Origin: Minisyncoccota bacterium
GTDB taxonomy: Bacteria; Patescibacteriota; Minisyncoccia; Moranbacterales; GCA-2747515
Length of the DNA: 64,000 bases
NCBI GenBank assembly: GCA_937936355.1
Contig: CALDDM010000020.1
Coordinates: 7,767 to 71,766 of the forward strand
Reading direction: 5' to 3'
The translations under genes were made by a program, and so were the position numbers. Positions within the stretch are counted from its first letter, which is position 1, and the number at the start of each line of letters is the position of its first letter. Under the pieces are notes generated by a model. The model did not search any database. It saw only the letters and a program-made list of their open reading frames with translations, and was not told where the DNA came from. Shown one piece after another: positions 10,119 through 39,277 of the stretch.

Positions 10119-10190
10119 TCCGCGGTAGCTCAGTGGTAGAGCAGTTGGCTGTTAACCAATTGGTCATAGGTTCGAATCCTATTCGCGGAG
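10119..10190 (+). tRNA. trnN: tRNA-Asn (anticodon GUU)
   Basis: TCCGCGG..GGCTGTTAACC..ATAGGTTCGAATCCTAT-TCGCGGA-G. Its last 12 nt overlap the stop and final codons of the minus-strand recombinase. Coordinates anchored on the ORF-track stop at 10179 (+/-1). Confidence 0.9.
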
Positions 10191-11792
10191 CAACATAGGA
10201 TTTTTGGCATGTATTTTGTCAAAAGTCCTTTTGTTTAGAGAAAAAACAGGTTCCAACCTTACATTATGCTCGTCCATTACCTTGCATGACTGTTGGATAG
10301 CGTATAATTGCTTTTTTGGCTCTATAACAACCTTTTTATCTAGGATGTAGCGGTTCCAACCTAAGTCCTTGATGACAGATCTTTTTGTAGGCGTGTCACC
10401 ATCCTTGAAGCGTTTTTTAGCAAACTCAGCAAAATCTAGATGCTCTTCAAGCTCCTCGATATAGGTTGTAGGTTCTTGCTCTAGACTTGTGAGTGACTTT
10501 TCAATCTTCGCTTTCTTTATTTCCATCTCTGACTGTTTCTTGCTAAACGCTTCTTTGGTAAGCTCGCCATCACTGCGCATATCAATGAGCTTACTAATCT
10601 GATTATCGATTTTGATAATTTGCTTTCGCATTGCATCTTTCTCTGACTCTTGGAGATCGCCTTTCTCTTCAAGTTTCTCTTTTGCTCGCTCTACAGCCCA
10701 CTGGGTAAACTCTGGTGGGATCCAAATGTCACCAAGCATCTTCTCAACCTTATCTTCGATGTCGCTCTCATGCACAGATCCCTGTGAGCATTTATATGAC
10801 TTAGATTTCTTTGTGCAGACATAGAATTTATACTCATGCACGTTGCCATTCTTTTGTTTCTTGGTTTTGTTGTGACCAGTGATGCCCATGTCGCACTCAC
10901 CACAGGCGAAAAGTTTCTTGTAGGGGAGATTATCGACCTTTACTTGGCTTGTTGGGGGTTTTTCGGAAAAGATCCCTTGAAGTTTTTCATATTCTCGCCA
11001 CGTAATCATTTTTTCATGTTTTCCTATATGCCAATTCCCAGATCCTTCTGGATACTCAAATTTTCCTGCATAGAAGGGTAGGGTAAAGATTTTATACAAA
11101 GTAGATCGTGAAAGTGGCTTGCGAGTCTTTGGGTTGATAAGCACACCTTTCTCCTGACTCTCTTTGAAGAGTTGTGCGATTGTTACCTCCTCATCAAGGA
11201 GTCGTCTGAAATATCCTTGAATGATAGGAAAAGCGATCGGATCCTTTTCGATAATTTTGAAACCCTTCTCCTTATCTGGCGTTGAGAGATAGCCTGGCAA
11301 GGCATGACCAGGACGCCACCCTTTCTCTGCCTTTTGAGAGAGTCCACGCTTTACGTCCTCACTTAATTCTTTGATAAATTGGTTTGCCATACCAAGCTCA
11401 ACTGCCATCATGAGAACGTTGTCAGTAGGATAGTAGCTTCTTCCAGGTGTTGAGATATGAGAAATGATGCTTTGCTGGATGTGCCAACTTACCTTTCCGC
11501 CATCGATAGGATTACGAGCGAGGCGATTAAGTTTCCAGCAGAGAATGCCATCTGCCTCACCTTTCTCGATACGAATGATCATCTCATTGAAAACTTCACG
11601 ACCAGGTGCTTTGGCAGATCGTGCTTCGCTAAGAATATCAAGAATTTCCAATCCTTCGTCTGTAGCAAACTTTTTCAGTGCAGTGATCTGATCGTTGATT
11701 GAAGCCATTTGACGATCTTCACTCTCGGATGACTTGCGAGCATACAGAAAGTATTTTTTTGCTTTCTTCATATATTTGATATTACCTCTCAC
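10179..11792 (-). CDS. large serine recombinase (resolvase/invertase N-domain, recombinase domain, zinc ribbon, coiled coil)
   Basis: YARKSSESEDRQ..SINDQ catalytic-Ser region, WKLNRLARN, CGECDMG..FYVCTKK zinc ribbon. ATG 11771 (MKKAKKYF) is the likelier start. Paralog of 24917-26557. Confidence 0.9.
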   Translation of the reverse strand: MRGNIKYMKKAKKYFLYARKSSESEDRQMASINDQITALKKFATDEGLEILDILSEARSAKAPGREVFNEMIIRIEKGEADGILCWKLNRLARNPIDGGKVSWHIQQSIISHISTPGRSYYPTDNVLMMAVELGMANQFIKELSEDVKRGLSQKAEKGWRPGHALPGYLSTPDKEKGFKIIEKDPIAFPIIQGYFRRLLDEEVTIAQLFKESQEKGVLINPKTRKPLSRSTLYKIFTLPFYAGKFEYPEGSGNWHIGKHEKMITWREYEKLQGIFSEKPPTSQVKVDNLPYKKLFACGECDMGITGHNKTKKQKNGNVHEYKFYVCTKKSKSYKCSQGSVHESDIEDKVEKMLGDIWIPPEFTQWAVERAKEKLEEKGDLQESEKDAMRKQIIKIDNQISKLIDMRSDGELTKEAFSKKQSEMEIKKAKIEKSLTSLEQEPTTYIEELEEHLDFAEFAKKRFKDGDTPTKRSVIKDLGWNRYILDKKVVIEPKKQLYAIQQSCKVMDEHNVRLEPVFSLNKRTFDKIHAKNPMLLRE

Positions 11793-11914
11793 TTAGCGGA
11801 TAGTCTGACTTACCCAGTCCACACAAAGGCGAAATGGCAGACTACCCACGAAGTGAGGCAATAAAAAATGCCATTGTATATTTAGACTAGGTAAGTAATT
11901 ACATTATACCATGC

Positions 11915-12052
11915 TTATCGGTAGTCTTCTGAGACTAAATCCACGATGAAATCTGAGTAGTATTCAAGAATATCAAACAACTCCTCATCCGTAAGGATGA
12001 TCTCATACTTCTTGCGAAGCAAGAAATTGAGTTGTTTGATATCGCTATTCAT
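11915..12052 (-). CDS. 45-aa protein conserved upstream of both recombinases (candidate directionality/accessory factor)
   Basis: Own translation MNSDIKQLNFLLRKKYEIILTDEELF... aligns by eye with the 50-aa ORF 26596-26748 (IKQ, L(T/D)DE). Same position in both elements. Confidence 0.4.
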   Translation of the reverse strand: MNSDIKQLNFLLRKKYEIILTDEELFDILEYYSDFIVDLVSEDYR

Positions 12053-12099
12053 TTTTTTAATTCCTGTGGTAAGTCATGATTTTTGAGTTCGAATATCAA

Positions 12100-12345
12100 C
12101 TAGTGAAGGTCATGCTTGTACACAAGGTGCTCGATGTAGCCCATTGCAGTTTCAATACTTTTAAAACGCAAATAACCTCCAGTGCAATTTTCCACATACT
12201 CTCCGTCAAGGGTATCTACTACGATGTACCTCTCAATTTTTTTCTCGTCATATTTAGATTTTTCATCTGGTTTTTTATCTTTATCTAATTCATATACAGT
12301 TGAATGACTCACTTCAACAAGGATTTCATAGTTTAGGTAGATCAT
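12100..12345 (-). CDS. hypothetical protein (element 1)
   Basis: 81 aa, tightly packed in the minus-strand operon. Confidence 0.5.
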   Translation of the reverse strand: MIYLNYEILVEVSHSTVYELDKDKKPDEKSKYDEKKIERYIVVDTLDGEYVENCTGGYLRFKSIETAMGYIEHLVYKHDLH

Positions 12346-12442
12346 AATTTTAGTAGTTAGTTATTATACGCAGTTTAAAAATACTTGTGGTTCAAATAGC
12401 TAATACACAAATATCAACCGAAATACATAGGGATAGCACATT

Positions 12443-13021
12443 TTATTCAAGTTTTATGGGGCGTTCTGATGAACCTGGCTCACCTATGAGCTTTAAGTAT
12501 CGGAGGTACTGTTTTGTGGGTTTTCCCTGGTAATACTCTTTTTTGACTCGCTTTTCGTAGTATCTGTCTGCCTTATCAAGCTGATCAAGACCTGATAGAA
12601 ACGTGTTCTTCGAAGGTTTTTTCTCGTTGCAACTCTCGTAGGTCAGATTATGGCAAGAGCGACACCGAAAGCGTGAGTCACGAAGGTAGAGGGTGTACAC
12701 TTTTTTCCCACAAAAGCTTCCATTTTCTTTGCGTCCGCATTGTAAGAACCATCTCTCGTTGCCAAAATGGCACTTCTGAGGAACGAGGTTAAGTTTGTAG
12801 TTCATGGAGTAAAAGTGCTCGCCACTGTGAAGAATATCGTAGCGAAAACTGATAAATGGATGCGGTAAGACCGTGTTGACTTTAACGCTAATTTCATCTG
12901 TATTGCAGTCAGACCAACTTATCTGAAAAGACGCTTCCTGATTTAGATTTAGCAGTCCATTTTCGGCGAGAAACTTGATGGAAATCGATCGCCTTTGATT
13001 TTCAATAAGAGATTTGCTCAT
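12443..13021 (-). CDS. hypothetical Cys-rich (zinc-finger-like) protein
   Basis: 192 aa with CHFG..C..CGKK..CRSCHN. Starts 5 nt after the upstream gene stop. Confidence 0.55.
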   Translation of the reverse strand: MSKSLIENQRRSISIKFLAENGLLNLNQEASFQISWSDCNTDEISVKVNTVLPHPFISFRYDILHSGEHFYSMNYKLNLVPQKCHFGNERWFLQCGRKENGSFCGKKVYTLYLRDSRFRCRSCHNLTYESCNEKKPSKNTFLSGLDQLDKADRYYEKRVKKEYYQGKPTKQYLRYLKLIGEPGSSERPIKLE

Positions 13022-13025
13022 AGAT

Positions 13026-14360
13026 TTAGTCGATTATGGGTATCTCATCAACGTACACATCATGCACATCGTACACATCATGCATCGTCTCATCGGTAAT
13101 GCCGTAGCGCTCTTTCCACATTTCGATCCTTTTTTCATTCAGTACAAAATTGATCACGATACCTTTGCTGATCCTCCTTGTTTGGAGTCTCAGTTTTTCT
13201 TTTAAACAATATCCAACTTTTCGAGGTGTGAGCTGGTCCCTTTCGTCATAATTTCGATTAACACAGTCTGTTATATCCTTGATGAGAACCTCTGGTAGAT
13301 TGCTATGAGTTCTTAGGTGGAGAATTGCCATAACAATGTCGCATTCCCACGACATATCTCGATGCTGAATAAGCGCATCATTGTACTGTGTGATAAACTC
13401 CGTTAAATCATTTCGTACATCAGGGCTCTTAATGATTGAGAATAGTGGGAGGACAATTTGTTGTAGGCGGGGATGTACGTCAGCAACAAGATCCTGAGAA
13501 AAGTTCATATCCTGAAAATAGTGATCCATCCGCCACTTGAGGAGTTTATTCCTTAGATTGAGACTTTCTTTGTAAAAATTATCATTAAGAGTTCGAGGTA
13601 TATCATCTCGTACCTTCCTTTCGCCCATCTCTTCCACAAGAAATCTACTTTCCAATGCTGTGTCAGCGTATCTTTCTCGTGTTGCGATAATTTTTGGACA
13701 AAATACGTCGAATGATTTTACATCAAAGGTTCCTTTACCTTCAGTTTTCAAGACAGGAACATTTTTTTGATAGCCAGAGTTTAAGACTTTGACCATATCA
13801 GTGGTCATATCAGAGGATCGTAAATCTGCCTCATCGACTATAAGCGTCCCCTTGAACTGTTGGATGATGCGAAATATGGGGCTAGAAGACGTTGCGCCAC
13901 CTGTAAACATTGGCTTGTAACAAACATTGCCGATGGTTTGTAAAAAACGAGATTTCCCACTTCCATAGTCACCCATTGCCCTGAGATATGGGATATCGTT
14001 GAATTTTTCGTAGAGCCATGTAAAGAGAACGTAATACGTTGCGATTTGCTCGTAAACTGGAGAGACATCGAGGTATTTGTGGATGTAATTTTTAATCTCT
14101 AGAAGCAATTCTTGCTCACTCCCATAGTCTTCTAGGCGCGAAGGCAGGCGAACTACATTGCACTCTAATAGGTTATGCTTACTGCTCATAGGGATATATG
14201 TCTCTTCATCAATTTCAACCTCTCTCAGGTTGGTTTTGAGAGCTCCAGAGCGGTTTATAGAGACAAACGACGTTGCTCTTGTCTTTTGATCAAAGACCAT
14301 TTCGTAAAGTGTGTTATGCGATCGTATGCAGGTTGTAGATATTGGCTTTTTTTCATTCAT
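13026..14360 (-). CDS. P-loop NTPase, putative element replication/helicase-like ATPase
   Basis: Walker A GDYGSGKS, Walker B LIVDEAD. C-terminal HDVYDVHDVYVDEI repeat. Confidence 0.55.
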   Translation of the reverse strand: MNEKKPISTTCIRSHNTLYEMVFDQKTRATSFVSINRSGALKTNLREVEIDEETYIPMSSKHNLLECNVVRLPSRLEDYGSEQELLLEIKNYIHKYLDVSPVYEQIATYYVLFTWLYEKFNDIPYLRAMGDYGSGKSRFLQTIGNVCYKPMFTGGATSSSPIFRIIQQFKGTLIVDEADLRSSDMTTDMVKVLNSGYQKNVPVLKTEGKGTFDVKSFDVFCPKIIATRERYADTALESRFLVEEMGERKVRDDIPRTLNDNFYKESLNLRNKLLKWRMDHYFQDMNFSQDLVADVHPRLQQIVLPLFSIIKSPDVRNDLTEFITQYNDALIQHRDMSWECDIVMAILHLRTHSNLPEVLIKDITDCVNRNYDERDQLTPRKVGYCLKEKLRLQTRRISKGIVINFVLNEKRIEMWKERYGITDETMHDVYDVHDVYVDEIPIID

Positions 14361-14391
14361 ATTTGTTCATTTACATTGTTATTTTCTTTAT

Positions 14392-14658
14392 TTATCTCTT
14401 CATGCTGTAGATGCGAGATTTGAGATTTTTGCGAGTATTCGAGTATTTGAGAGGTGGAACTTTTATGGTGTCGTCCCAAAACTTCGAAACAATTTTTGAT
14501 ATTCTGGCATTAGCCTCAAAATGGAACATTGCTCGATTGCCAGTCAGTGAAATTTTCATTAAGGAACAATTCTCACAAATCAGTGTTGAGGCAAGATCCA
14601 AGTCGTGAGTTTGATACGCCGCAGAAACCTGTGATCGTTCATTTTTTTTCATACGCAT
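14392..14658 (-). CDS. small phage/plasmid-type protein (DUF5659-like by recollection)
   Basis: 88 aa. The THDLDLASTLI..FHFE pattern recalls DUF5659. Not searchable here. Confidence 0.35.
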   Translation of the reverse strand: MRMKKNERSQVSAAYQTHDLDLASTLICENCSLMKISLTGNRAMFHFEANARISKIVSKFWDDTIKVPPLKYSNTRKNLKSRIYSMKR

Positions 14659-14783
14659 TGATAAATTGATTAAGAAAACATGTTTATGTTCTATATCATG
14701 TCATCCCACGCAGTTGGGAAGCAAAATAAAAAAAGCCCATAGAATTGGGCTTTTGTCTCTCAAGTAAGAGATCTGCGTGGGGG

Positions 14784-15860
14784 CTATGTGGGATCTTTAT
14801 ATAAATGTCGGTACTTAGAGTTGACATTTACAAATAAGATAGTCTTAACTTCGACTTTATGTGTAAACTCTATCTTTTCTTTGTTTAGTGATTTTTGAAC
14901 TATTTGCTTTTTCTGTAAGCTATTTTCTCTCATATATTTTTTGATAGAAGTGCGTTCATAAAATTCGTTATTGATGCTACGAACAACATTATGATCATAG
15001 TCACACAGAGAACTCTGTGAATTTTTTGCCAACATAAATAAGCTTTTCATATATGTTTCTGATTTATTCCAAGTCAGGTTGATAGGAATTGGTTTTTCAA
15101 AAACTTCATCCAAAACAATGTATACTCGCCCTTTAGGGTTTGTCGATATATGAACGAAAGTTATTGACTCTAGATGGCGTTTTTTAGTGCATTTTACGGG
15201 GACGCTAAAATCATCTTTTTTAGCAACTCCTATAGGTGTTTCAGTTAAGTAAGAAATTTCGTCTATTAAGGACTGATGATTGTGTATCTCTACTTTTATC
15301 AGCGAGGCTTTAGGCTTAAATTTTTCGACTTTGAAAAGTAAATTCTTGAATGATTTAGCTGGATCATATTTTTTTGATGTCCCTAATTTTGCCATTGAGA
15401 GCGAAGTGAAAGGGCGTTTATAGGCAGTCCACTTGATCGCGCCATTAAGAGTAATATCTTCTATGATTTCGAGGAGTGTGATGTACAAATCTTCATGACT
15501 TTTCTTGTCTAAATTTGGTGATTTGAAATAGCTATTGATAAGTTTGATCATTTGATCTGTGAGTACCCACAATTCAGCCACATCCTTTTCCTCATCAAGT
15601 CTTATATTGAAAAGGTCTTTATAGTCTGAAATCCAAAAGGTGTGCCCTTCCTTACGATCAATATGAATGTAGTTTTCCTCAGCCAGTTTTAAGACAATAC
15701 TTTTTTGATCATCTGGAGAAAAGTCGTAACTAACGGAGTCATCACGCACGATAAATCCGCTACAATAGTAGCGCACAGATCGTTTTGGATTTATCGCAAA
15801 AACTCCGTCGATATCTCGCTTTACATATTCGATTTTCTCTTCCGGGCTCATATATTTCAT
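14784..15860 (-). CDS. hypothetical protein (element 1)
   Basis: 358 aa. Hairpin AAAAAGCCCA..TGGGCTTTT downstream at about 14739-14757. Confidence 0.6.
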   Translation of the reverse strand: MKYMSPEEKIEYVKRDIDGVFAINPKRSVRYYCSGFIVRDDSVSYDFSPDDQKSIVLKLAEENYIHIDRKEGHTFWISDYKDLFNIRLDEEKDVAELWVLTDQMIKLINSYFKSPNLDKKSHEDLYITLLEIIEDITLNGAIKWTAYKRPFTSLSMAKLGTSKKYDPAKSFKNLLFKVEKFKPKASLIKVEIHNHQSLIDEISYLTETPIGVAKKDDFSVPVKCTKKRHLESITFVHISTNPKGRVYIVLDEVFEKPIPINLTWNKSETYMKSLFMLAKNSQSSLCDYDHNVVRSINNEFYERTSIKKYMRENSLQKKQIVQKSLNKEKIEFTHKVEVKTILFVNVNSKYRHLYKDPT

Positions 15861-16074
15861 CTACATGTACATAGTGTACATTGTGAACGTCTAGAGGGTA
15901 GATGTCAAAATATAGAAACCGAAATCTGGACTGGATCTTGAAAATATCATGATGAAATGCTAGTCTGAAAGTACAACTTAGCGAGCCCAACCGCCTATAT
16001 GGTGAGTGGTTCAAAAAAACCGACTAAAGTGAAAAACTCCTTGTGAGGGTTACTTTAGTCGGTCATATCCAGGA

Positions 16075-16494
16075 ATGGGTATGGAGCTAGCAATAGCTCG
16101 CCTTGCAGGGAGCTTTTTGTTTTTAAGAAAAAATATGTTCAAAAGACTTCGACTGATTTTAAGTGTTATTCTCATACTGTTGATTGTGTATACGACAATC
16201 CTCTACTTCATCGATCGATCAGCATTTCAAGCAATGAGAGATCATGATGAACTTTGCACAGACTATTTGGAAAGTGTTGATCAGTATTGGTCATCCGATC
16301 GAGATGATTGGTACAAAGAAAACTGCGAGCTAGATGGATCAAGGTATTCAGTTGCAGACTCCAAAACAACACGTTGGAAAGTAGTAGGTGCTAATCTGGA
16401 TAACGCTATAGCATATATTATGTATGTTGTCGGAGGGTTTATCATGCTCTACGTTGGTAAATGGATCGTCGCAGGAAAAGAAGAAAAGTATTGA
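16075..16494 (+). CDS. membrane protein, hypothetical
   Basis: 139 aa with N- and C-terminal hydrophobic helices. Alternative start ATG 16135. Confidence 0.5.
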   Translation: MGMELAIARLAGSFLFLRKNMFKRLRLILSVILILLIVYTTILYFIDRSAFQAMRDHDELCTDYLESVDQYWSSDRDDWYKENCELDGSRYSVADSKTTRWKVVGANLDNAIAYIMYVVGGFIMLYVGKWIVAGKEEKY

Positions 16495-16512
16495 TTTTAA
16501 GCCAAAAAAATG

Positions 16513-16578
16513 CTATACTGTGTATGTAAGTTAACAGCAAAACGTCAGTGCTGACGTTAACTGCACAGTATAGTTTTT
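16513..16578 (+). terminator. long nested hairpin terminator
   Basis: CTATACTGTG..(ACGTCAG-TG-CTGACGT)..CACAGTATAG followed by TTTTT. Confidence 0.65.
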
Positions 16579-16591
16579 CTCAAAAAAGATG

Positions 16592-16674
16592 GGTTCCTGG
16601 GAAATCTGCATGGACACCTTACGAACTATACTACTAACCCTACAAAGCGGTTGGGAGATTTCACCCAGTCACGA
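16592..16674. repeat. internal junction: degenerate M2-type arm followed by an M1-orientation arm
   Basis: CCTGGGAAAT...TTACGAACTAT (16592-16629), then GGTTGGGAGATTTCACCCAGTCACGA (16649-16674). CCCAGTCACGA is the exact reverse complement of TCGTGACTGGG in the 19827 and 30828 arms. Confidence 0.45.
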
Positions 16675-16790
16675 GGTATAAATCGTGAGGAGAGTTTAAG
16701 TACTCTTTATGTGTGAAAACTCTCAGTCGCTTTTTTGTGTGGTCGGTCCCAAAGAAGTGACCACCACATAAGCTAGTCAAAGAAAATACT

Positions 16791-17582
16791 ATGGAAAAAA
16801 AGATCAAAACATACACATACACAGATAGAGATGGCATGACACACAAAGCCAGTTTCCTCCCGGAAAATCTCTCATTTGCTATGGGTGAGGCAAAGGCATT
16901 GGGAGCAACCAAAATGGCAGACATCGAGACAGGTGACACGATCACATTTCAAAAATCACACACGTCTATCTACACGCCAAAGATCCAAAAGGCAATCAGA
17001 TTTGCTACAAGGGTCCATGAGGTAGACCAAAAGCAAAAAAGAAAAGGCAAAGATGAAGCATATATCTCACACCCTCTCATAGTAGGACTCATACTATCAC
17101 GAGCCACAGACGATGAAGATGTTATCACAGCAGGCATTCTTCATGACACAGTTGAGGATTGTCATCCAGATCACCCAGTTACACTTGAAATGATCGAAAA
17201 AGAGTTTGGTCCCAGAGTCGCAGATCTCGCCGTAAGCGTCACAGAAGAAAACCCAGACGCGTCATACGATGAAAGAAAGAAGCGAGCACTTGATCATGTT
17301 GCTCACATGACAGAGGATCAGATCCTTATAAAATCAGCGGATGTGATTGCCAATATGACAGAATTCATTCATGACTATGAGGAGATTGGAGATCAAGTTT
17401 TTGAAAGGTTTAACACGGATAAATTCAGTAAAATTAAAACACAACTATGGATGCTTTATGCTCTAATTGAAGGATGGTTCAAAAATCCACTCACCAATGA
17501 TCTCTCTAGTATGGTGCCGAAAATCTATGACATAGGCGGTACTAAGTTCATGAGAGAGTATCCTGCTCAGAGGTATAAATAG
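16791..17582 (+). CDS. HD-domain (p)ppGpp/alarmone hydrolase, SpoT/Mesh1-like (small alarmone hydrolase)
   Basis: RFATRVHEVDQKQKRKGKDEAYISHPL, GILHDTVEDC, ERKKRALDH. No synthetase domain. Confidence 0.75.
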   Translation: MEKKIKTYTYTDRDGMTHKASFLPENLSFAMGEAKALGATKMADIETGDTITFQKSHTSIYTPKIQKAIRFATRVHEVDQKQKRKGKDEAYISHPLIVGLILSRATDDEDVITAGILHDTVEDCHPDHPVTLEMIEKEFGPRVADLAVSVTEENPDASYDERKKRALDHVAHMTEDQILIKSADVIANMTEFIHDYEEIGDQVFERFNTDKFSKIKTQLWMLYALIEGWFKNPLTNDLSSMVPKIYDIGGTKFMREYPAQRYK

Positions 17583-17738
17583 AAAGTCTTTCACAGTACC
17601 TTGTATGCTACTAAGAAGGCAAATTATAGGGGTTCCTATGAAAATAGTTTGTAGCTTGAGTTATTCCACGACTAAGCAGCAAACATGATACAATCAAATT
17701 TGCGGGTAATTTTTATAGAAACTTTCGAAACTATTTGA

Positions 17739-19751
17739 ATGCAATCTCCTCAAAAAATTGAAACAAAAGAAGATGTTTTGAAAGAAATTGAAGGTCTTGT
17801 GCATGGGCCTGGCTTTATCTACGCCATTTCTACTATGATAGTGTCAGATACATTTATATCAGTAGAAGATATTGTTGAAGTAGATTGGAAAAAAAGATTA
17901 GGATTTCAAGAGATCTCAATTTTTATTGGATTTATGATACGAGAAGAGGTTGATATGAAAAGAGTTGGTCCAGAGAAAATTCAGGAATTATCCGAAAGGA
18001 TAAAGGATTTAACCACAAGATTTCATGAGGCACACCTAAAACCATTTCGAGATATAGTGGCGGATAAAGTCAGTGGGACTAATTCTGATGGAGATACATC
18101 ATCTAGGAGCTCTAGTAGCGTAGAGATAAGTGGAGAACTCATGACTGAGCCTATGTTCTACGGAGACTCGGGAGCATATGATTTCCAATATGCCGAGTTG
18201 GCTACTAAAAGGTATAAGGAAGATGCGATATGGCTAATGAAAAAAAAGTCTCTGGATATGGATAGAGTAAAGTTAGCTGTTGAAAAAATAAAGAACTTGC
18301 AAGAGAAAAAGCGAGTAGACTTATTTTCAAAACCGGATGTATTTAATCTTGATGACTTGTGTCTAGAAGCACTTTGTTTTAAAAGAGAAGATTTGGCATT
18401 TTTAAGTGATGAAGAATTTGAGTCATTTATAGCCAGCTTTGGAACAGAATTGGATAGCAATAGTCAATTTAGAGGGTACGGCGACTACAATGTAATTGAC
18501 TCACATCCAATCATTATCTTGGGGGATGGTAGATACTATTTACCAGTAGCCTTTAATTTATTTCAGTCAATTTATGAGAGTCCATTCTATTGGATGAATG
18601 AAGATGAGCAGTACATTGATCAAGCTTCCGAGAATAGAGGTAGTGCAACCGAAAACATCGTATTAGAAATGTTGGAAAATACATTTGGCTCAGAAAAAGT
18701 GTATAGAAGTGTAAATATCAAGAAAGGAAGAAATGTTTATACAGAGATTGATGTTTTAGTCTTGCTTGGAGATAAGGCAGTCATCTTTCAGATTAAATCA
18801 AAAAAGTTGACTGAGTTGTCTAAGAAAGGTGACAATGACGCATTGGTTAATGATTTTAATGCTGCTATTCAGCAGGCATATAATCAAGGACTCAAGTCTC
18901 GTGAGGGTATTCTAAATCAAGATAAATTTACCTTGGAGGGTGCTGATGGTAGCACCATTGAGGTAGAAGACACGATTACAGATACCCATATCATCTGTGT
19001 GACATTAGATAATTATCCTGCAACACTACAACAAGTTCATAGTTATTTGCGTATAGAAGATGGAGATCCACATCCTCTTGTGATAAATGTATTTGACTTA
19101 GATCTTATTCTGTTCTATTTAGATGATCTTTATACTTTTCTCTATTATTTGAGACTGAGAGAAATGCATCACAAGTATTTTCGCGCGGAGTCCGAAATTT
19201 CTTTATTGGCATATCATTTGAGGCATAAATTATGGCCGCTTGAGGGGACGGATGTGGCATTTATTGATAATAAGTTTGCACAAATGATTGATGCGCACTT
19301 TCTTTGGAGAAGAGGTGGTGCTCCTAGGCCGGAGGGTGTTGAAACTCTATTTAATACTTGGGAAAATAACGATTTTCGATCGTTGATTTTACAAATAAAG
19401 GAAATAGGTCCAGAAAATGGCTGTAAAATTATCTTTACACTTCTTGATCTAGAAGGTAAAGGTGCAGACGATTTAATGGAAGGCATTAGGAAGACTAAAT
19501 TGAAAATAAAAGCAGATAAAAAAGTTCATGACTTTTCAGTTTCCATTGGCACTGGTGAAATTGGGTTAACATTCATGTCGCTACCAGACAAGTCTAAAGA
19601 GTCAATAGACACGTTTAATGCAATTTGTTTATCTAGGATGCATAAAGAGAGAGCTGATGAATGGATTGGACTAGCATCTTTTTATGAAAGTAAAAATGTT
19701 ATAGATATTCTTTTTTTCAGTGATGCGCCACTAATTGAAGATTTAAAGTAG
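17739..19751 (+). CDS. large protein with central NERD/PD-(D/E)xK-like nuclease motif
   Basis: 670 aa. GSATENIVLEMLENTFG...TEIDVLVLLGDKAVIFQIKSKK fits the D..(E/Q)xK nuclease fold pattern. Confidence 0.45.
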   Translation: MQSPQKIETKEDVLKEIEGLVHGPGFIYAISTMIVSDTFISVEDIVEVDWKKRLGFQEISIFIGFMIREEVDMKRVGPEKIQELSERIKDLTTRFHEAHLKPFRDIVADKVSGTNSDGDTSSRSSSSVEISGELMTEPMFYGDSGAYDFQYAELATKRYKEDAIWLMKKKSLDMDRVKLAVEKIKNLQEKKRVDLFSKPDVFNLDDLCLEALCFKREDLAFLSDEEFESFIASFGTELDSNSQFRGYGDYNVIDSHPIIILGDGRYYLPVAFNLFQSIYESPFYWMNEDEQYIDQASENRGSATENIVLEMLENTFGSEKVYRSVNIKKGRNVYTEIDVLVLLGDKAVIFQIKSKKLTELSKKGDNDALVNDFNAAIQQAYNQGLKSREGILNQDKFTLEGADGSTIEVEDTITDTHIICVTLDNYPATLQQVHSYLRIEDGDPHPLVINVFDLDLILFYLDDLYTFLYYLRLREMHHKYFRAESEISLLAYHLRHKLWPLEGTDVAFIDNKFAQMIDAHFLWRRGGAPRPEGVETLFNTWENNDFRSLILQIKEIGPENGCKIIFTLLDLEGKGADDLMEGIRKTKLKIKADKKVHDFSVSIGTGEIGLTFMSLPDKSKESIDTFNAICLSRMHKERADEWIGLASFYESKNVIDILFFSDAPLIEDLK

Positions 19752-19826
19752 ATTGCTAATGCCACATCAATGATTTAGCTTGTGGCGATATTGGGCTTGT
19801 ATAGAGTTTACATCTTACCTAAGCGG

Positions 19827-19858
19827 TTTTTTCGTGACTGGGAATAGGGTGTTGGAAC
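19827..19858 (-). repeat. M2-type arm (copy c), right end of element 1
   Basis: TTTTTTCGTGACTGGGAATAGGGTGTTGGAAC. The ATG of the next ORF (19859) abuts the core directly. Confidence 0.7.
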
Positions 19859-20209
19859 ATGTATACTAGAACTATGAATTACTGGGATACACTTCAAAAA
19901 CTAGTTGAGGACAGTGAAATCGTGATTGATCGTCCAAAAGGATCGGCGCACCCTCGCTATCCAGAATATATCTACCCATTTGATTACGGGGAATTGAAAG
20001 ACACCTCATCACAGGATGGGGCTGGCATTGATATTTGGGTTGGTTCTATTGGCGGGGAAGAAGTCGTCGGCATCATAAATGTAATTGATCCTGTTAAGAA
20101 AGATAGCGAAATCAAAATACTTCTCGGATGTACAAGTGAGGATATGGATGTTATCCTCGAATGTCACAATAGAGGTGAGATGAGTGGAATATTAATCACA
20201 AAGCAATAG
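19859..20209 (+). CDS. small inorganic-pyrophosphatase-like protein (tentative)
   Basis: 116 aa. The DRPKGSAHPRYPEYIYPFDYGEL..DGAGIDIWV pattern is recalled from short PPase-like proteins. Confidence 0.4.
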   Translation: MYTRTMNYWDTLQKLVEDSEIVIDRPKGSAHPRYPEYIYPFDYGELKDTSSQDGAGIDIWVGSIGGEEVVGIINVIDPVKKDSEIKILLGCTSEDMDVILECHNRGEMSGILITKQ

Positions 20210-20211
20210 AT

Positions 20212-20718
20212 ATGAATTATCAAAACTACATCAAGAAATTTGATCTTCCTAAAGACTTCAAAGCACCAACAAAGTTAGAGTATGAAGACCTTATCGCAAA
20301 GCCACTTACAAGGGATGATTTAAAAGAGGATCTCAATGCAGTAAATTCAAGCATGGAAATCATCAGGGAAACACGAGGTGGATCATGGCCAGAAGAAGAG
20401 TTGAGTGAAGATTTTAACCTACTTGATCTTGCTTGGCATGAGAGGGAGTTTAGAGACTCAGAATCATTTGCATATGTAGTCTACACGAGTGAGAATGTTT
20501 ATGTCGGATGCTTTTACATCTACCCAATGGGTGCAAGAACTACGCTGACAGAAAACTTGTTACAATTCGATGCTGATATTAGTTGGTGGGTTAGTGCAAG
20601 TGCTCATGAAAAGGGCTATTATGAAAAACTCTATAGTGCAATCAAAGGATGGGAATCAGAATTTCCATTTACAGAGATATACTATTCAAATGCTGATATA
20701 CCAATGCTAGAAGAATGA
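20212..20718 (+). CDS. GNAT-like acetyltransferase (tentative)
   Basis: 168 aa. Weak GNAT-like layout (FAYVVY..VGCFYIYP). Confidence 0.35.
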   Translation: MNYQNYIKKFDLPKDFKAPTKLEYEDLIAKPLTRDDLKEDLNAVNSSMEIIRETRGGSWPEEELSEDFNLLDLAWHEREFRDSESFAYVVYTSENVYVGCFYIYPMGARTTLTENLLQFDADISWWVSASAHEKGYYEKLYSAIKGWESEFPFTEIYYSNADIPMLEE

Positions 20719-20719
20719 T

Positions 20720-21175
20720 ATGTACAAGTCATCAATACATTTTGAAAGAACACCAGAAGAGCGAAGAGATCAAATGCTAGCGTGGAAAAGAAGTGATGAG
20801 GCATTTTTTGGTGCTGGAGCATGTCATATACTCGCCTATACGTTTAAGTGGCTTCATGAAGACAGAAACTATGACATCGTTTTCGTTAAGCCGAAAGAGC
20901 CATTTACACACGGAAATCATGTTTATGTAACTGATGGAGAGTGGGCATTTGATTTTAATGGATGGACAAGAGAAAAAGAATTGCTCGCAGAGGCAGAAAA
21001 GGCATATGGAGGGAAGTACCCAGGATGGAAATATGAGAGAATTATCTTGGAGTGTGACTTAGAAACGTTTTGTAAAGAAAACTATCATCGCCCTCCAGCA
21101 TACTACGCATATCTTCCATGGGAGAGGACATATGCATTTATAGAAAAATTTGAAGGTATGCCTCCAAAAAAATGA
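20720..21175 (+). CDS. hypothetical protein
   Basis: 151 aa, translationally coupled to both neighbours. Confidence 0.5.
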   Translation: MYKSSIHFERTPEERRDQMLAWKRSDEAFFGAGACHILAYTFKWLHEDRNYDIVFVKPKEPFTHGNHVYVTDGEWAFDFNGWTREKELLAEAEKAYGGKYPGWKYERIILECDLETFCKENYHRPPAYYAYLPWERTYAFIEKFEGMPPKK

Positions 21176-22065
21176 TAGATATGAAATCACAACGCACTAA
21201 GGGAGTAATCGCTCTCGCAATCTTGGCCTGGGTTTTTGCAACGATGGGAGTTTTTGCACGTTATCTCGGGACAGAATTTGAACTTTTTGAACAAACGTAT
21301 CTTCGTATTGGTTTGGCTTTTCTCATAGGCTCAGCTATCTTTTTTAAATTTATAAATTGGAAAAAATACTTTTCCATAAGTAAAAAAGATATCTATATAC
21401 TTGTCTTTCGTACTATATGCCTATATTTGGGCGTTGCACTTATCACCGAAGGACTGCTGAATACGAACTACGCAAATGCATCACTGATAGCTGTACTACC
21501 AATTATGCCTCTTATGGCATATTTTCTCTTGGGGGAAAGATTGCAACGGAAGACTGTGGGGTTTATCCTCTTTGGATTTTTTGGTGTGGCACTTCTTTCA
21601 CTTGATGGACTGAGCTTTTCTAGTTTTGGTTATGGGGAGTTAATGGCGTTTATCTCTCTCATCTTTTTTGATCTGAGCTATATCGCAAGGAAGTGGCACT
21701 CAGATTATCTCAATAATTACGAGACAGCAGTATTCATGTTCGGCATTGGTTCATTCTTTCTTTTTGCAACATCGATCATGCTCGGAGAGGGCTTGCCTAC
21801 TGGAAGTCAATTTCTTTCGTGGACGATATTCCTCGCTCTTCTTGGCGGAGCTGTATTTAACGTGATAAACCTGGTGCTCACAAATTATGGATTTCAACAT
21901 GTCAAAGCGTCGGTAGCTAGTAACATTCTTACGATTGAAGCAGTCTTTGCATTGGGATATGGACTTTTCTTGTTTAAAGAAATCCCAGTGTTCTATGAAA
22001 TTCTGGGTGGTATCATCATTCTGTGTAGCGTGTATTTTGTGAATAAGATTGAGAATAGTGCATAG
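21172..22065 (+). CDS. EamA/DMT-family transporter
   Basis: 297 aa, about 10 TM helices, duplicated EamA-like halves. Confidence 0.75.
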   Translation: MIDMKSQRTKGVIALAILAWVFATMGVFARYLGTEFELFEQTYLRIGLAFLIGSAIFFKFINWKKYFSISKKDIYILVFRTICLYLGVALITEGLLNTNYANASLIAVLPIMPLMAYFLLGERLQRKTVGFILFGFFGVALLSLDGLSFSSFGYGELMAFISLIFFDLSYIARKWHSDYLNNYETAVFMFGIGSFFLFATSIMLGEGLPTGSQFLSWTIFLALLGGAVFNVINLVLTNYGFQHVKASVASNILTIEAVFALGYGLFLFKEIPVFYEILGGIIILCSVYFVNKIENSA

Positions 22066-22271
22066 TTTGGTAGCTTGAATTAGATTTATAGTTACGGATA
22101 GTAAGAAGTTCTATGAAGTTGGATATTATCGTAACTAGTAATAGGACATCAAAATCTATTTAGAGTGTTTAGCACTACTTCTGTATATGGTTACAATTCT
22201 ATACTAAATTTATAATTTAGCTCATATGAGCATTGACTCTATATTTTTAATGCTCGGACTATAGGCAATAT

Positions 22272-24221
22272 ATGACAGATAAAAAAGTTAAGTTTTTCAA
22301 CATTGGTGACCTCTCCACAGGGTTTTATTTAGATAGAATAAAAGAGGTAATTGATTTGGAGCTTCCCAATCTAGATAGTGATATAAATACCATTCTTGAA
22401 TTGGTAAATATTATTAAGTTCATTGAAAATGGTATTTACGACAAGCAATGGTCAGAGAAATTCCGCAAAAAATCTGAAAATACAAAGTCTGATTATTACA
22501 AAATTGTCGGTATCTATTTTAGTAATTTATCCCCTAAAAATATACATGATAAATTGGTAAATCTTGATGATGAATATATTGAGGACTTTGTAGATCAATT
22601 CGAAAAATATGATTTAGGGTCAAAGATCCAAAAAGAAGACTTTGATAAGATTATTAAGGATTTGAATATACCCTATAAACAACTTGCAAAAACGAAGTAT
22701 CTAGCTCAAAAATATCCAGAGACAATGAAGAGTATTTTTCTATCAAATCCTGGGTATTTTCAAGTTTTTCTTGGAAATTTTACGTCGGATCGTGGTAATA
22801 AAATCCTAGTACCCGCCACAGTCTCAAAGGAGGAGATGTTAATTTTTTGTAATGAATACATTGATTCTGATGATGCAAATATTAATTACCTCAGAATACT
22901 TACTGAGCCAATAAAAGGTATTGAAGAACATTTGCATGTTGATGCAAAAACAAAACTGAAAGCTAAAAATAGAATTAATATACTCAGAAATGAGATGTTT
23001 AAAGATGGCATGGGTGGAACCACAGAAATAAATATGACAGTGACGACTTCAAGATCTGAGTATGACAAAGCCATTTCTGATAGAAATGATGGAGATGTAG
23101 TCGGCTTAGTTGATGAACAGTGGATTGACGATCATCATGATTTCCCAACATTATTGAATAACATTCAGAATCTATACGATCTTTTTTCATCTGATCTGAT
23201 ATCTCAGCTTCCAAGTTTCCCCAAGCAGGAAATGGGAGTTCTGGAAACACATTTGGTTGGAATTAATACAAATAATTCATACACAATAGGTCAATTCTTT
23301 ACAATTAAACAACAAATGGCCGTGGGGAAAATGTATGCTTTCTCAAGCTTTCTATCAAAGCATGGCATTAGGATCGAAGGTATAATCGATTGGTTTTTTA
23401 CAACTTATTCAAAGGAAGAGTTCGGTGTAGAGTGGCTACCCCTTCACATGCCTTCAAAAGATGAGTCTAAAGGCAATCAGACTGCTACTTTACTGAGGAT
23501 AGAAGAGCATGTCAGAACCCAATACAGCATTTTGGTATCTAATGGATCCATAAGTCGAGATCTGGTTGAGATGTCAAACACACCTTTTTTTAGAGAACTT
23601 CAGAGCCATGCTAAAAATAAGTATGTATACCTTATTGAATCAGATGATATGAGGACTATCGTGAATCTTTTATTTTCTGACCAATCCTCTATAGCTTACA
23701 TCAACGAAACATTTAAAGGCCAACACTTCGTTGATTTGATTGAAAATTGTGATGTAAAGTTATCAGATCTTCATGAATATCAAATCCCTAGAGTGGAATA
23801 TCTCATTAATGAAGGTTTCGTTAGTGAGGGAGGAGATGGTGTCCTTCGATTGGAAAAAAGACTAGAGATCAAATTGCTAAGCATTTTGTATACAGTTGGA
23901 GTCATTGGTTACAATCATATTCCAGACAATAATCGGCCAACCATAGATGCTATGGCAAAAAAGGGTATGGTTTCATTTGGTGCCACACTATACTCATTAC
24001 AAGAGCAAGACTATTTAAATTTTATACTGAACAACTCTGTTTTTGATAATAGCTGGGGATTAAGAAATAGCTATCAACATGGATTACCAAATTACGATGA
24101 TCCTAATCATTATGACTTTGACAATATGATAGTCATGCTTATTCTCCTAACGCATGTAGTAAAAATTAATGAGGAGCTTACTCTAAGAGAAGTCGCTTCT
24201 GATAATGAAGATGTAGATTAG
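22272..24221 (+). CDS. large hypothetical protein with C-terminal HEPN-like Rx4H motif
   Basis: 649 aa. WGLRNSYQHGLPN near the C-terminus matches the HEPN RNxxxH(G) signature. Confidence 0.4.
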   Translation: MTDKKVKFFNIGDLSTGFYLDRIKEVIDLELPNLDSDINTILELVNIIKFIENGIYDKQWSEKFRKKSENTKSDYYKIVGIYFSNLSPKNIHDKLVNLDDEYIEDFVDQFEKYDLGSKIQKEDFDKIIKDLNIPYKQLAKTKYLAQKYPETMKSIFLSNPGYFQVFLGNFTSDRGNKILVPATVSKEEMLIFCNEYIDSDDANINYLRILTEPIKGIEEHLHVDAKTKLKAKNRINILRNEMFKDGMGGTTEINMTVTTSRSEYDKAISDRNDGDVVGLVDEQWIDDHHDFPTLLNNIQNLYDLFSSDLISQLPSFPKQEMGVLETHLVGINTNNSYTIGQFFTIKQQMAVGKMYAFSSFLSKHGIRIEGIIDWFFTTYSKEEFGVEWLPLHMPSKDESKGNQTATLLRIEEHVRTQYSILVSNGSISRDLVEMSNTPFFRELQSHAKNKYVYLIESDDMRTIVNLLFSDQSSIAYINETFKGQHFVDLIENCDVKLSDLHEYQIPRVEYLINEGFVSEGGDGVLRLEKRLEIKLLSILYTVGVIGYNHIPDNNRPTIDAMAKKGMVSFGATLYSLQEQDYLNFILNNSVFDNSWGLRNSYQHGLPNYDDPNHYDFDNMIVMLILLTHVVKINEELTLREVASDNEDVD

Positions 24222-24234
24222 AGTACTTCAAAAT

Positions 24235-24855
24235 TTACCTTGCATACCTTGCTCTCCTTGAAAATTGGAGTAACTCCAGACTTCCTAGTAGAGTCGTTTT
24301 TAAGCGAATCGATCGACTTAGTTCATATCCGTGATCGTTTGCAAATGTGACCAATTCATCTCTTGTATAGAAATGATCGAAGTAGTAATCCTCAGGACAT
24401 CCAAACTTATTGATGAAATATCGGTGGATGGGATTTATTGTGAAGTAATCAACAATTATAAGATTTCCATTTGTGGCGAGTAGTCTAGCGCACTCCTTAA
24501 GGAATGTGCCAGGCTCATCAATATGATGTAGTGTGAGAGAACTTATAAGCACTTCAAACTTCCCAATCTCGAAGTTCGTATCTAGCACGCTTTGATTACT
24601 GAGGTTAATTCCAGAATCTTGCAGTGCAAAGCTTGCTTTCGACAAAGAATCTTCGGCAACATCAATGCCATACAAATTACTGTGACCATTTTCAAATAAT
24701 ATATTGAGTAGTTCACCTTCGCCACACGATGTATCAAGTAATTGCGTATCTTTGGGAATGTCTAGATTTGCATAAATGCTCCGAGCAATATTAGTACGAT
24801 ACTTTTTCGTATTGAGCAGTGATGATAGTATTCGCTTGAATGACTTTAAGAGCAT
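24235..24855 (-). CDS. class I SAM-dependent methyltransferase
   Basis: Motif I LLDTSCGEGELL, motif II-like LYGIDV, post-I acidic residues. Confidence 0.75.
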   Translation of the reverse strand: MLLKSFKRILSSLLNTKKYRTNIARSIYANLDIPKDTQLLDTSCGEGELLNILFENGHSNLYGIDVAEDSLSKASFALQDSGINLSNQSVLDTNFEIGKFEVLISSLTLHHIDEPGTFLKECARLLATNGNLIIVDYFTINPIHRYFINKFGCPEDYYFDHFYTRDELVTFANDHGYELSRSIRLKTTLLGSLELLQFSRRARYAR

Positions 24856-24907
24856 TGTATAAATGATATGTATTGCAGTCTTTGAATTTTAACACTATTG
24901 ATAAATC

Positions 24908-24936
24908 GGTTCCAACCTAGTCCCATTGCGGGAGCA
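24908..24936 (+). repeat. M1-type arm (copy b)
   Basis: One mismatch over 28 nt to the copy at 34317. Encodes the last codons (LLPQWD*) of the recombinase on the opposite strand. Confidence 0.75.
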
Positions 24937-26557: not shown

Positions 26558-26595
26558 CTCAGCACTTATTTTTTCTATTTTAGCACTTAATGAAC

Positions 26596-26748
26596 TTAGT
26601 GCTTTTTGACATCTTCACCATTTTTGACCACCTCACGAACATATCCAAGAACTTGCTCAGCGTACACTTTCGCTGTCTCATCATCAAGCATAACGCCTGT
26701 GCGCTTCTCGTAGAGCTTCTGGAATTGTTTAATATGGGTGAGTGTCAT
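26596..26748 (-). CDS. 50-aa protein conserved upstream of both recombinases (candidate directionality/accessory factor)
   Basis: Own translation MTLTHIKQFQKLYEKRTGVMLDDETAKVYAEQVLGYVREVVKNGEDVKKH. Positional and weak sequence match to 11915-12052. Confidence 0.4.
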   Translation of the reverse strand: MTLTHIKQFQKLYEKRTGVMLDDETAKVYAEQVLGYVREVVKNGEDVKKH

Positions 26749-26786
26749 TTTGTTTTATATGGTGCTGTAAGGCTCGCATGTAGTTT

Positions 26787-27611
26787 CTAGACCTGACCTC
26801 TTAACGGCTCAATATTTGGATTGTCGTAGAGTGCATCGTATTCATCTACTTCATTCTCTGTACCATTTTTACTTTGTATCATCTGCTTTTTCATCTCTGC
26901 AAGTCGTGCAAGACCATCTGTATTTTCTGGCATAGCTATTACTTCCTTCTCTTCACTGGACCGCATACCATACTCTCGATTGAGAAAGTCTCGCATAAGA
27001 GCATCACCACTTAGTGTGATTTTTTCTTGTGATTTGATGAACTTGATGGCCTCTACCATTTTCTTTTCAACTTGCTGTATGGTAGCGTTAAAATCGGCGG
27101 ACCATTTCTGTATCTGGGACATGGGGGCAGCCTGGATAAAGGTGAGTGCCTCCTCTTTTTTACTGGTTGAACCCACATTCTGTTTGTCAGTCTTATCAGT
27201 CTTATCATTGTTGTTTGTGTATGGTCTTGCGTTCTCTTTTACGTCTCTATTACTACTGTTTGTTGTATTGTCTGATGCTTCACCTGCTTGCTCTTCATCG
27301 TAAGAAAGTAAGTGGATAAGCCGTATGGGCTTTGTATTTTTATGCTTTATGTAGCCATTTTTTTCAAGAAAGATTAAGTAGCGGTCTACTTTGCCTCGTG
27401 ACCATTTCCATCTCTTAGCGAGAGTTTCTTTTGCCCATCCTACATGACCACGGGGGACCAACATTCGCATACCTTTCACATTGATGAAGTTGTCAGAAAA
27501 GTTTGCAATCAGATGTAAGTCTTGTAGCGCTTGCATATCTGTAAATTTCTGAGAATGATAGAGGGGGTCTTCTTGTATGTGACGGTGTGTTTTGATAAAT
27601 CCCTGTGACAT
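26787..27611 (-). CDS. putative replication-initiator / winged-helix DNA-binding protein
   Basis: The N-terminus GWAKETLAKRWKWSRGKVDRYLIFLEKNGYI resembles phage/plasmid replication organizer wHTH. Inference only. Confidence 0.4.
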   Translation of the reverse strand: MSQGFIKTHRHIQEDPLYHSQKFTDMQALQDLHLIANFSDNFINVKGMRMLVPRGHVGWAKETLAKRWKWSRGKVDRYLIFLEKNGYIKHKNTKPIRLIHLLSYDEEQAGEASDNTTNSSNRDVKENARPYTNNNDKTDKTDKQNVGSTSKKEEALTFIQAAPMSQIQKWSADFNATIQQVEKKMVEAIKFIKSQEKITLSGDALMRDFLNREYGMRSSEEKEVIAMPENTDGLARLAEMKKQMIQSKNGTENEVDEYDALYDNPNIEPLRGQV

Positions 27612-30825: not shown

Positions 30826-30827
30826 GA

Positions 30828-39264: not shown

Positions 39265-39277
39265 TAAATAAAACACT

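Follow-up and report, generated by a model that had tools for sequence, protein, structure and literature searches.

We examined a 64,000-nucleotide stretch of contig CALDDM010000020.1 (hereafter the window) from a Moranbacteria-like member of the Patescibacteria, placed by its RpoD homologs, and found an intact tRNA-Asn(GTT) gene followed directly by a ~30.6-kb tandem array of three segments, E1 to E3 (10192–40785). Most probably, this array was docked at the 3′ boundary of the host tRNA gene by large serine recombinases (LSRs). The tRNA's own 3′ arm would have served as one half of the host attachment site (B), a pseudo-tRNA arm as the matching half-site of the element (P), and a GGAGC core as the place of crossover.

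Two recombinase genes lie in the array, LSR1 and its paralog LSR2, and both end inside an attachment arm. The initial annotation, made from the sequence alone, placed the stop codon and last three codons of LSR1 within the 3′ T-stem and acceptor strand of tRNA-Asn. Our reading agrees, except that the overlap is 13 nt (10179–10191) and not 12 (10179–10190). The stop codon TAG appears as CTA at 10179–10181, within the 3′ T-stem, and the last codons before it specify E (10182–84), R (10185–87), L (10188–90), and L (10191–93). LSR2 was likewise correctly seen to end in ..LLPQWD(stop): its stop codon (24917–24919) falls inside GGTTCCAACCTAGTCCCATTGCGGGAGC, a 28-nt sequence that we call M1 (24908–24935), which encodes the final six codons of LSR2 plus the stop. 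In both elements, the recombinase C-terminal codons and the attachment arm are thus the same DNA, as had also been noted. The final ~25 coding nucleotides of LSR1 before the tRNA (10192 to ~10216, ..NPMLL) coincide with what we assign as the second element half-site, P′. The tRNA itself is intact, being called by ARAGORN and scoring 72.4 bits against the Rfam tRNA model RF00005 (gathering score 29).

Both recombinases are full length with all three domains present. The N-terminal resolvase catalytic domain (PF00239) was matched at E 6.5e-18 in LSR1 and 1.4e-17 in LSR2, PF07508 and PF13408 exceeded their curated cut-offs in both, and an R12-K13-S14 motif that includes the catalytic serine was invariant across a 35-sequence alignment (A2). 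Both enzymes are presumably active at present. The LSR1 product on record in public assemblies has 530 aa and starts at ATG 11771; the longest open reading frame (ORF; 537 aa) starts at GTG 11792. The sequence GGTTCCAACCT occurs twice more within the 3′ coding region of LSR1, at 10249–10259, where it encodes a family-conserved RLEP motif, and at 10352–10362, where it is read in another frame (..LGWNR..).

The arm into which LSR2 runs resembles the tRNA end but is stretched. When M was compared with the tRNA segment from T-loop to discriminator plus C (GGTTCGAATCCTATTCGCGGAGC, 23 nt), the inner 16 nt aligned without gaps at 11/16 positions, and the outer GGTTCSAA lay 5 nt farther out. We searched the window with the tRNA's outer 8-mer and inner 15-mer, allowing 0–10 nt inserted between them. 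The top matches were three copies of M, all with exactly 5 nt inserted and with 18, 18, and 19 of 23 positions matching; the next best reached 16. These copies, at 24908, 34317, and 40758 (0 expected in shuffles), share the 28-nt length and the motifs, and go beyond what the initial annotation had described. At none of the three positions did ARAGORN or Rfam report a tRNA or other known RNA, so a hidden RNA gene was dismissed. In serine integrases, the motif bound by the zinc-ribbon domain (ZD) sits 5 bp nearer the center in attB than in attP (Rutherford et al. 2013, PMC3783163), and the 23-nt tRNA arm and 28-nt M arms differ by that same offset. Because the 5-bp outward shift matches the attP versus attB geometry, we assigned the role of B half-site to the tRNA arm and that of P half-site to M. 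We identified no candidate for the role of recombination directionality factor.

The array presents four junctions, J0 to J3, which we aligned with the native flank of the tRNA. J0 (from 10169–10191 on) can be read as B joined to P′ of E1, J1 (24908) as P of E1 joined to P′ of E2, and J3 (40758) as P joined to the native right half of the host site, B′. The left sides of all four terminate in GGAGC and the right sides differ, which bounds the crossover to 10187–10191. Family-wide, the smallest block common to B and P arms is 5 nt, and the distal arms share only their last 5–8 nt with the tRNA. At J0, an 8-bp inverted repeat, AATCCTAT (10175–82) and ATAGGATT (10195–202), is centered between G10188 and A10189, and the same 12-nt dyad spacing recurs in three related loci (L046, L076, and L026). 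The central dinucleotide is therefore likely GA, G10188–A10189, as judged from this symmetry.

Relatives of the host show what the site looks like with other occupants and with none (related loci carry L numbers). L082 and L083, whose RpoD is 94% identical, have an identical tRNA-Asn, and an LSR 49% identical to LSR1 ends inside it in the same manner (..SLLRE(stop)); here, the island measures only ~6 kb, and the HlyD/AcrB genes known from E3 come after it. This smaller island also holds a tyrosine integrase (Phage_integrase; L082 13962–15041) besides the LSR, and both recombinase families may use tRNA-Asn. In L084, with RpoD 90% identical, a group I intron splits the tRNA-Asn, downstream of which there is no LSR, and the 3′ flank of the tRNA reads GGAGCCAGCAATAAAAACAGCCCTTGTAGGGCTGTTTTTTGTTGCTTACTTTG... 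Positions 3597–3662 of L084 match window 40781–40846 at 86% identity over 66 nt (E 1.5e-15). The homology begins at the terminal GGAGC of M3 (40781), and on its left the window has M, not the native ...TCCTATCCGC... This match means that the tRNA-Asn gene's own terminator has been displaced by ~30.6 kb, with three M-bounded segments in between. Comparison with this island-free relative thus supports attachment at tRNA-Asn, as initially proposed, but not the expected displaced tRNA end, since M is what precedes the native flank. A metagenome scan with a 17-mer of that flank (AGCAATAAAAACAGCCC) returned chance matches, and none among the matches listed contained the extended flank.

The arrangement is not peculiar to this genome. 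LSR1 has 2903 homologs at E ≤ 1e-20, mostly in Patescibacteria; we surveyed 80 related genome loci for overlaps, 21 loci for register, and the 120 best homologs for tails. The LSR ORF ended within the 3′ end of an antisense tRNA or transfer-messenger RNA (tmRNA) gene at 41 of the 80 loci, and the targets were Asn (16), His (11), Gln (3), Lys (2), Ala (2), one each of Ile, Leu, Gly, Trp, Tyr, and Ser, and one tmRNA. Three further loci, apparent exceptions, have an intron-split tRNA-Asn. Since the arrangement recurs so widely, the overlaps of LSR1 with the tRNA and of LSR2 with M are not due to chance. The codon aligned to L527 of LSR1 ends at the 3′-most nucleotide of the tRNA in 15 of the 21 register loci and 2 nt inside it in the other 6, where ARAGORN included CCA; conserved coding therefore stops at the same nucleotide by the tRNA end in 21/21 loci and six tRNA species. 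Element-side arms, defined by a GGTTCGAA-like motif plus the last 7 nt of the tRNA, added up to 28 nt 11 times, whereas every other length was seen at most 4 times; an opposite-strand control gave one case at 28 nt. Such arms were found for Ile, Lys, Leu, Asn, and Ser targets, among others.

The C-terminal tails of the homologs record which DNA lies across the junction. Among the 120 best homologs, 37 stop within three residues past the conserved LL, at least 37 continue as ..(R/P)G.DSN(P/L/R)RP, which is a T-arm read in antisense, and in at least 17 the LL is followed by five residues and (V/I/L/F)RT, which corresponds to GGTTCGAAC read in antisense and in the +5 register. Clusters of ≥90% identity hold both tail types, which diverge immediately after LL: ..SPAVL is followed by RGWDSNPRPAG in one member and by ALADDFRT.. 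in another, and ..FPELL by RE(stop) or by RLLDNVRT.. The tRNA-type tails also vary between members ≥90% identical in different hosts (RGWDSNPRP, RGQDSNLQP, RRQDSNLQP), from which we conclude that the T-arm is host DNA and not element DNA. In one such cluster (P0407 versus P0097 and P0406, ≥90% identity), the tail is either ..DWLRGRDSNPRPTG, the antisense of tRNA-Asn, or ..DWLGD(stop), and the latter tail also occurs where LSRs meet tRNA-His, as in L013, which raises the possibility that a single recombinase uses two tRNA species. In IMG/VR, scanned for circular phage-like forms, the family was nearly absent, with a best match of 35% identity. Three contigs with P-type tails (L229–L231) were considered as circles and set aside; they lack the tRNA but also lack a terminal overlap, leaving circularity unproven.

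One related element is available in both an integrated and a circularly permuted form (in the sequences that follow, a slash marks the joint and all are given in the tRNA sense). On the 119-kb scaffold L233, attL reads ..GGTTCGAATCCTACTCGCGGAGC/AACTCAGGAAGAG.., that is, a 23-nt B followed by P′, and attR reads ..GGTTCGAACATTGTCCAACTCGCGGAGC/CCACTCCCC.. with a 28-nt P, after which comes the host terminator. The attP of L232 reads ..GGTTCGAACATTGTCCAACAGGCGGAGC/AACTCAGGAAAGG.. The two ends of L232, a contig of 11,185 nt, overlap by 30 nt, and its genes follow one another as in the ~11.2-kb integrated element after circular permutation. The tail of its LSR is ..LLRLLDNVRT.., compared with ..LLRE(stop) in L233. 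L232 is an excised circle or a tandem copy, and either way it displays the P–P′ joint.

The anatomy of the array, the empty-site flank, the family-wide arms and tails, and the attL/attP/attR trio, all of them directly observed, fit a mechanism of the following kind. The left half-site of attB would be the tRNA's own 23-nt segment from T-loop to discriminator, and the element's P half-site would be the 28-nt pseudo-tRNA arm M, with the same outer GGTTCSAA, a similar inner motif, and 5 extra bp between them. The last ~25 nt of the recombinase coding sequence (..IYSQNPxLL in the family) would act as P′. Strand exchange within GGAGC, at 10187–10191 and probably at G10188–A10189, would join the tRNA (B) to the 3′ coding end of the recombinase (P′). 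The LSR1 ORF has no stop codon before this point, and whatever lies across the junction would close it. In the integrated state, antisense tRNA would supply R, E, and TAG (..LLRE(stop)); if E1 were excised as a circle, or where segments meet inside the array, antisense M1 would supply P-Q-W-D-stop (..LLPQWD(stop), a prediction for LSR1). LSR2 would at present read into the P arm of E1. The tRNA would stay host-encoded and intact, with no rebuilding, since at most its last 1–4 nt would be exchanged and these are identical in both partners. The predicted joint of an E1 circle is ..GGTTCCAACCTAGTCCCATTGCGGGAGC/AACATAGGATTTTTGGCATG, a site without E1 would join the tRNA to LSR2 as ..CCTATTCGCGGAGC/AAGTCAGGAAACACC, and the fully empty site would read ..CCTATTCGCGGAGC/TAGCAATAAAAACAGCCC.

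On this mechanism, dependence would run from host to element, the host tRNA supplying the stop and last three codons of the recombinase. The C-terminal tail is probably without functional consequence because such tails are short, variable, and poorly conserved. The conserved ..IYSQNPxLL end coincides with the P′ half-site, and protein and DNA constraints are therefore confounded there. The order in which the array was assembled we infer.

The initial annotation had drawn another conclusion from the overlap. It placed the crossover in the T-loop and had an arm borne by the element rebuild the tRNA. Under such a model, which resembles many tyrosine-integrase tRNA islands, the element would carry the 3′ T-stem and acceptor strand, and the original 3′ end would be displaced to the far end of the island; the joint of an excised circle would then contain the tRNA's own GAATCCTATTCGCGGAGCA in place of M1. 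This is the standard logic of tRNA-gene islands (Islander paper). Two relatives also carry exact direct copies of the tRNA end that start in the T-loop, the signature expected of a T-loop crossover: a 16-nt repeat in L046 (GAATCCCACCCCCGGA, ~10.4 kb from the tRNA) and a similar 17-nt copy downstream of the tRNA in L084 (within 3650–3715). However, no second or displaced copy of the tRNA-Asn 3′ end, direct or inverted, was found in the window (best match 15/24), a point missing from the initial annotation, and at J3, the native flank adjoins M and not the native TCCTATYCGCGG. The short 5- to 8-nt identity of the distal arms with the tRNA, interrupted farther out by the 5-nt insertion, does not suit a T-loop crossover, and T-arm-encoded tails that differ by host among LSRs ≥90% identical speak against rebuilding of the tRNA. 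L046 itself has a 28-nt P arm and terminator ~190 nt inside its exact repeat. The exact repeats could therefore be scars of other T-loop-type elements, given that tyrosine integrases may also use this tRNA, as in L082, or they could be part of attB. We therefore abandoned both the T-loop crossover and the rebuilt tRNA as unlikely, and retained the proposal of a serine-recombinase element attached at the 3′ end of tRNA-Asn.

Two further accounts are less probable still. The M arms might be decayed or gene-converted 3′ ends displaced by successive tyrosine-like integrations and have no function as recombinase half-sites, their +5 spacing being accidental; they do resemble the tRNA-Asn 3′ end (11/16 in the inner part plus GGTTCSAA) and lie where displaced fragments would be. 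This is very hard to reconcile with three copies that keep both length and motifs, with the recurrence of 28 nt in unrelated genomes and at other tRNA species (11 cases versus 1 in the control), with the presence of the arm in the attP form L232, and with ~20% of family proteins reading through such an arm in a fixed register. Equally improbable is that the overlap is incidental, LSR1 and LSR2 being inactive relics or resolvases whose ORFs run to the first stop in the tRNA while the island arrived by another route. The short, variable, and probably functionless tail, the absence of any observed E1 excision product, and the tyrosine integrase in the L082 island would suit such an account, but the LSRs are full length with three domains and an invariant R-K-S motif, the junction register is exact across the 21 loci, a related element is known in integrated and circularly permuted forms, and Pfam found no Phage_integrase match among the island ORFs scanned in the window.

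Docking by LSRs at the tRNA boundary has its own difficulties. Standard LSR rules forbid attP × attL and attP × attR recombination and so do not account for growth of the array. No recombination product of E1 or E2 was seen, be it the junction of an E1 circle or an empty site from the same strain, and the terminal overlap of L232 could stem from tandem duplication and not from a free circle. E3 carries no recombinase, and the right side of J2 resembles a B′-type terminator module, which a simple array model does not account for. The crossover dinucleotide was placed by dyad symmetry and the shortest shared block. We found no convincing mirror of the outer motif GGTTCGAA in P′ or B′, which makes the sites asymmetric. 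The exact tRNA-end copies in L046 and L084, discussed above, weigh on the same side.

Features of the tRNA-Asn locus and the tandem array (window coordinates)
Feature	Position	Strand	Evidence and remarks
tRNA-Asn(GTT), intact; target gene	10119..10191	+	ARAGORN; Rfam RF00005; sequence identical in relative L082
Assigned B half-site at attL junction J0, 23 nt, T-loop to discriminator + C	10169..10191	+	Compared with 28-nt P arms; register across 21 loci
Inferred crossover zone, core GGAGC	10187..10191		J0–J3 aligned with native flank
LSR1, large serine recombinase	10179..11792	-	ORF; Resolvase, Recombinase, Zn_ribbon_recom domains
Segment E1, ~14.7 kb	10192..24935		Pfam: LSR1, hypotheticals, LOOT RNA, HD, NERD, GNAT, EamA, methyltransferase
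M1, assigned 28-nt P half-site (pseudo-tRNA arm), junction J1	24908..24935	+	18/23 at +5 spacing
LSR2, 546-aa paralog	24917..26557	-	34% identical to LSR1; P-type tail: LL + 5 codons + VGT in read-through
Segment E2, ~9.4 kb	24936..34344		Pfam: LSR2, hypotheticals, NTP_transf_6, DKNYY; bounded by M1 and M2
M2, second assigned 28-nt P half-site, junction J2	34317..34344	+	Followed by terminator and inverted arm-like module
Segment E3, ~6.4 kb, cargo	34345..40785		Pfam: HlyD, AcrB, FMN_bind, MerR, MauE; no recombinase
M3, third assigned 28-nt P half-site, junction J3 (array meets native flank)	40758..40785	+	Best +5 match, 19/23
Native 3′ flank of tRNA-Asn (B′ side): terminator hairpin, then inverted tRNA 3′ arm	40786..40853	+	86% identity to L084

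The genes dnaG and rpoD lie upstream of tRNA-Asn. From the tRNA to ~34.3 kb, the genes are mostly hypothetical and the G+C content is lower (0.30–0.42 in E1); a resistance-nodulation-division (RND) efflux cluster with MerR and MauE comes next and ends at 40754. A blastn comparison of L082 with the window confirmed that the HlyD/AcrB part of E3 also follows the smaller island of that relative. RpoD has an N-terminal extension of ~80 residues rich in lysine and alanine (8428–8700), and its relatives align over only ~81–84% of the protein, so that the extension is variable. Just past the array lies a uracil-DNA glycosylase gene (40897–41517, minus strand) whose nearest homologs are Bacteroidota-like at ~70% identity, with no close relative from the candidate phyla radiation (CPR) among them. 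The gene was probably acquired horizontally, to judge from these homologs, and it was dropped as a host anchor for finding more empty sites. Beyond its terminator, the native flank contains the tRNA-Asn 3′ arm once more in inverted orientation (40836–40853).

Four intergenic sites, 19827–19858, 30828–30859, 33058–33120, and 34340–34403, share a module in which a degenerate M-like arm is combined with a terminator hairpin and with GTGACTGGGAATAGGRYGYTGGAAC; this sequence is the inverse of the tRNA-like arm GGTTCCAAC..CCTATT. The first copy runs right up to the ATG of the ORF at 19859. These arm–terminator–inverted-arm modules may be fossil junctions or regulatory units. E1 also contains a LOOT RNA (Rfam RF03000, an orphan structured RNA) at 15984–16099 on the plus strand, and four other elements have one (L002 7568–7682, L013 7253–7371, L024 7362–7481, and L046 6288–6406). 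Scores ranged from 69.6 to 84.5 bits (gathering score 46.4), and the RNA is always encoded opposite to the recombinase, whose start lies 2.4–4.2 kb downstream of it; L026, L076, L232, and L233 have no LOOT RNA. LOOT RNA may be a component of these LSR elements.

In five loci (L002, L009, L014, L018, and L045), similarity ends in the anticodon loop, and a crossover there was considered and rejected in favor of group I introns within tRNA-Asn: Rfam RF00028 matches L014 and L018, and in L002 the 5′ exon could be located. Such introns, present in several Patescibacteria, were noted at L084 2973–3601, L002 11585–11855 (minus strand), L014 11611–11816, and L018 11636–11984. The layout is a 5′ exon ending ..GGCTGT, the intron, and a 3′ exon starting TAACC.., and ARAGORN misses such genes; the intron region of L084 also includes a 101-aa ORF (3036–3341). 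The left 11.6 kb of E1 was recovered on an independent contig, L001 (Logan ERR9287626; 13,147 nt), and there the assembly breaks at 11619, in the tRNA-Asn anticodon loop, which is the intron position in relatives. Many family contigs end directly after the LSR gene. Such breaks at the tRNA-Asn junction suggest population heterogeneity or repeats.

A wider claim may be ventured, tentatively and with somewhat less than even confidence. These LSRs could be the first serine integrases recognized as a family that specifically targets tRNA and tmRNA genes, with thousands of members, mostly in Patescibacteria (CPR). The near-universal T-loop GGTTCGAA would be the outer motif and the acceptor end the inner motif, the cut would fall at the gene's last nucleotides without repair of the tRNA, attP would contain a 28-nt pseudo-arm stretched by half a helical turn, and the C-terminal codons would double as P′. 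If so, the universal outer motif would let the family hop between tRNA species (12 targets seen) by retuning inner contacts only. Such a family is apparently undescribed: we found no earlier report of serine integrases targeting tRNA genes, in CPR or elsewhere, in the literature searched, whose coverage was incomplete, so that a prior description is possible. The probable docking of LSR elements at tRNA genes runs counter to a published generalization, by which tRNA genes are not among the targets of serine integrases (PMC4383910).

A tRNA gene would then serve as a landing pad in a second way, by a cut at its boundary and mimicry in attP, as against being split and restored. Island finders that rely on duplicated tRNA fragments will miss these islands. 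The same arrangement would explain oddities of CPR genome bins, such as contigs that break past these recombinases and spurious annotated tails reading ..GWDSNPRP or ..DDVRT. With these elements, very small genomes receive defense and resistance cargo (type III restriction-modification, NERD, and RND efflux). In genome engineering, the LSRs are candidate integrases whose natural attB sites lie in conserved tRNA genes, and the many natural attP/attB pairs are material from which specificity could be learned.

The large serine integrases of phages and integrative and conjugative elements (ICEs), such as A118/LI, Bxb1, phiC31, and SPbeta SprA, share with LSR1 and LSR2 the Resolvase, Recombinase, and zinc-ribbon domains, a short shared core, and an attP outer motif 5 bp farther out than in attB (PMC3783163; here 28 versus 23 nt). 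Their targets, however, are protein-coding genes or intergenic sites, whereas the present elements insert where a tRNA or tmRNA gene ends on its 3′ side and use a T-arm plus acceptor as B, a pseudo-tRNA arm as P, and a stretch inside the integrase coding sequence as P′. An attachment site inside the integrase gene, with different C termini in the integrated and excised forms, is known from ICEs of streptococci that target rumA and encode a single serine integrase (Ambroset et al. 2016) and from intP/intX of Myxococcus phage Mx8 (PMC4701971). A comparable change of C terminus is seen here in the clusters of ≥90% identity and in L232/L233, and is predicted for excised LSR1. Unlike in the rumA ICEs, it is an antisense tRNA that closes the ORF, the swapped tail has only 2–40 residues, and the target is unaltered, whereas the 3′ end of rumA is exchanged.

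The tRNA islands with tyrosine integrases (Islander class) are alike in lying at a tRNA 3′ end with an adjacent integrase gene, a functional tRNA, and tandem arrays. The window has an island at a tRNA with the integrase aboard; it differs in having neither a restoring fragment with a displaced repeat nor a tyrosine integrase, and the tRNA gene is kept because the crossover falls at its last nucleotides and not because the element restores it. A further parallel is the staphylococcal cassette chromosome (SCC and SCCmec). These elements are mobilized by the CcrAB serine recombinases, insert at the extreme 3′ end of rlmH without inactivating it, and commonly form composite tandem arrays with att-like repeats. 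They differ in their protein-coding target, in using two recombinase subunits, and in having no pseudo-target arm with the +5 geometry. What they share with the present array is the use of serine recombinases, insertion at the extreme 3′ end of a conserved housekeeping gene that is not inactivated, and segments separated by repeated att-like sequences.

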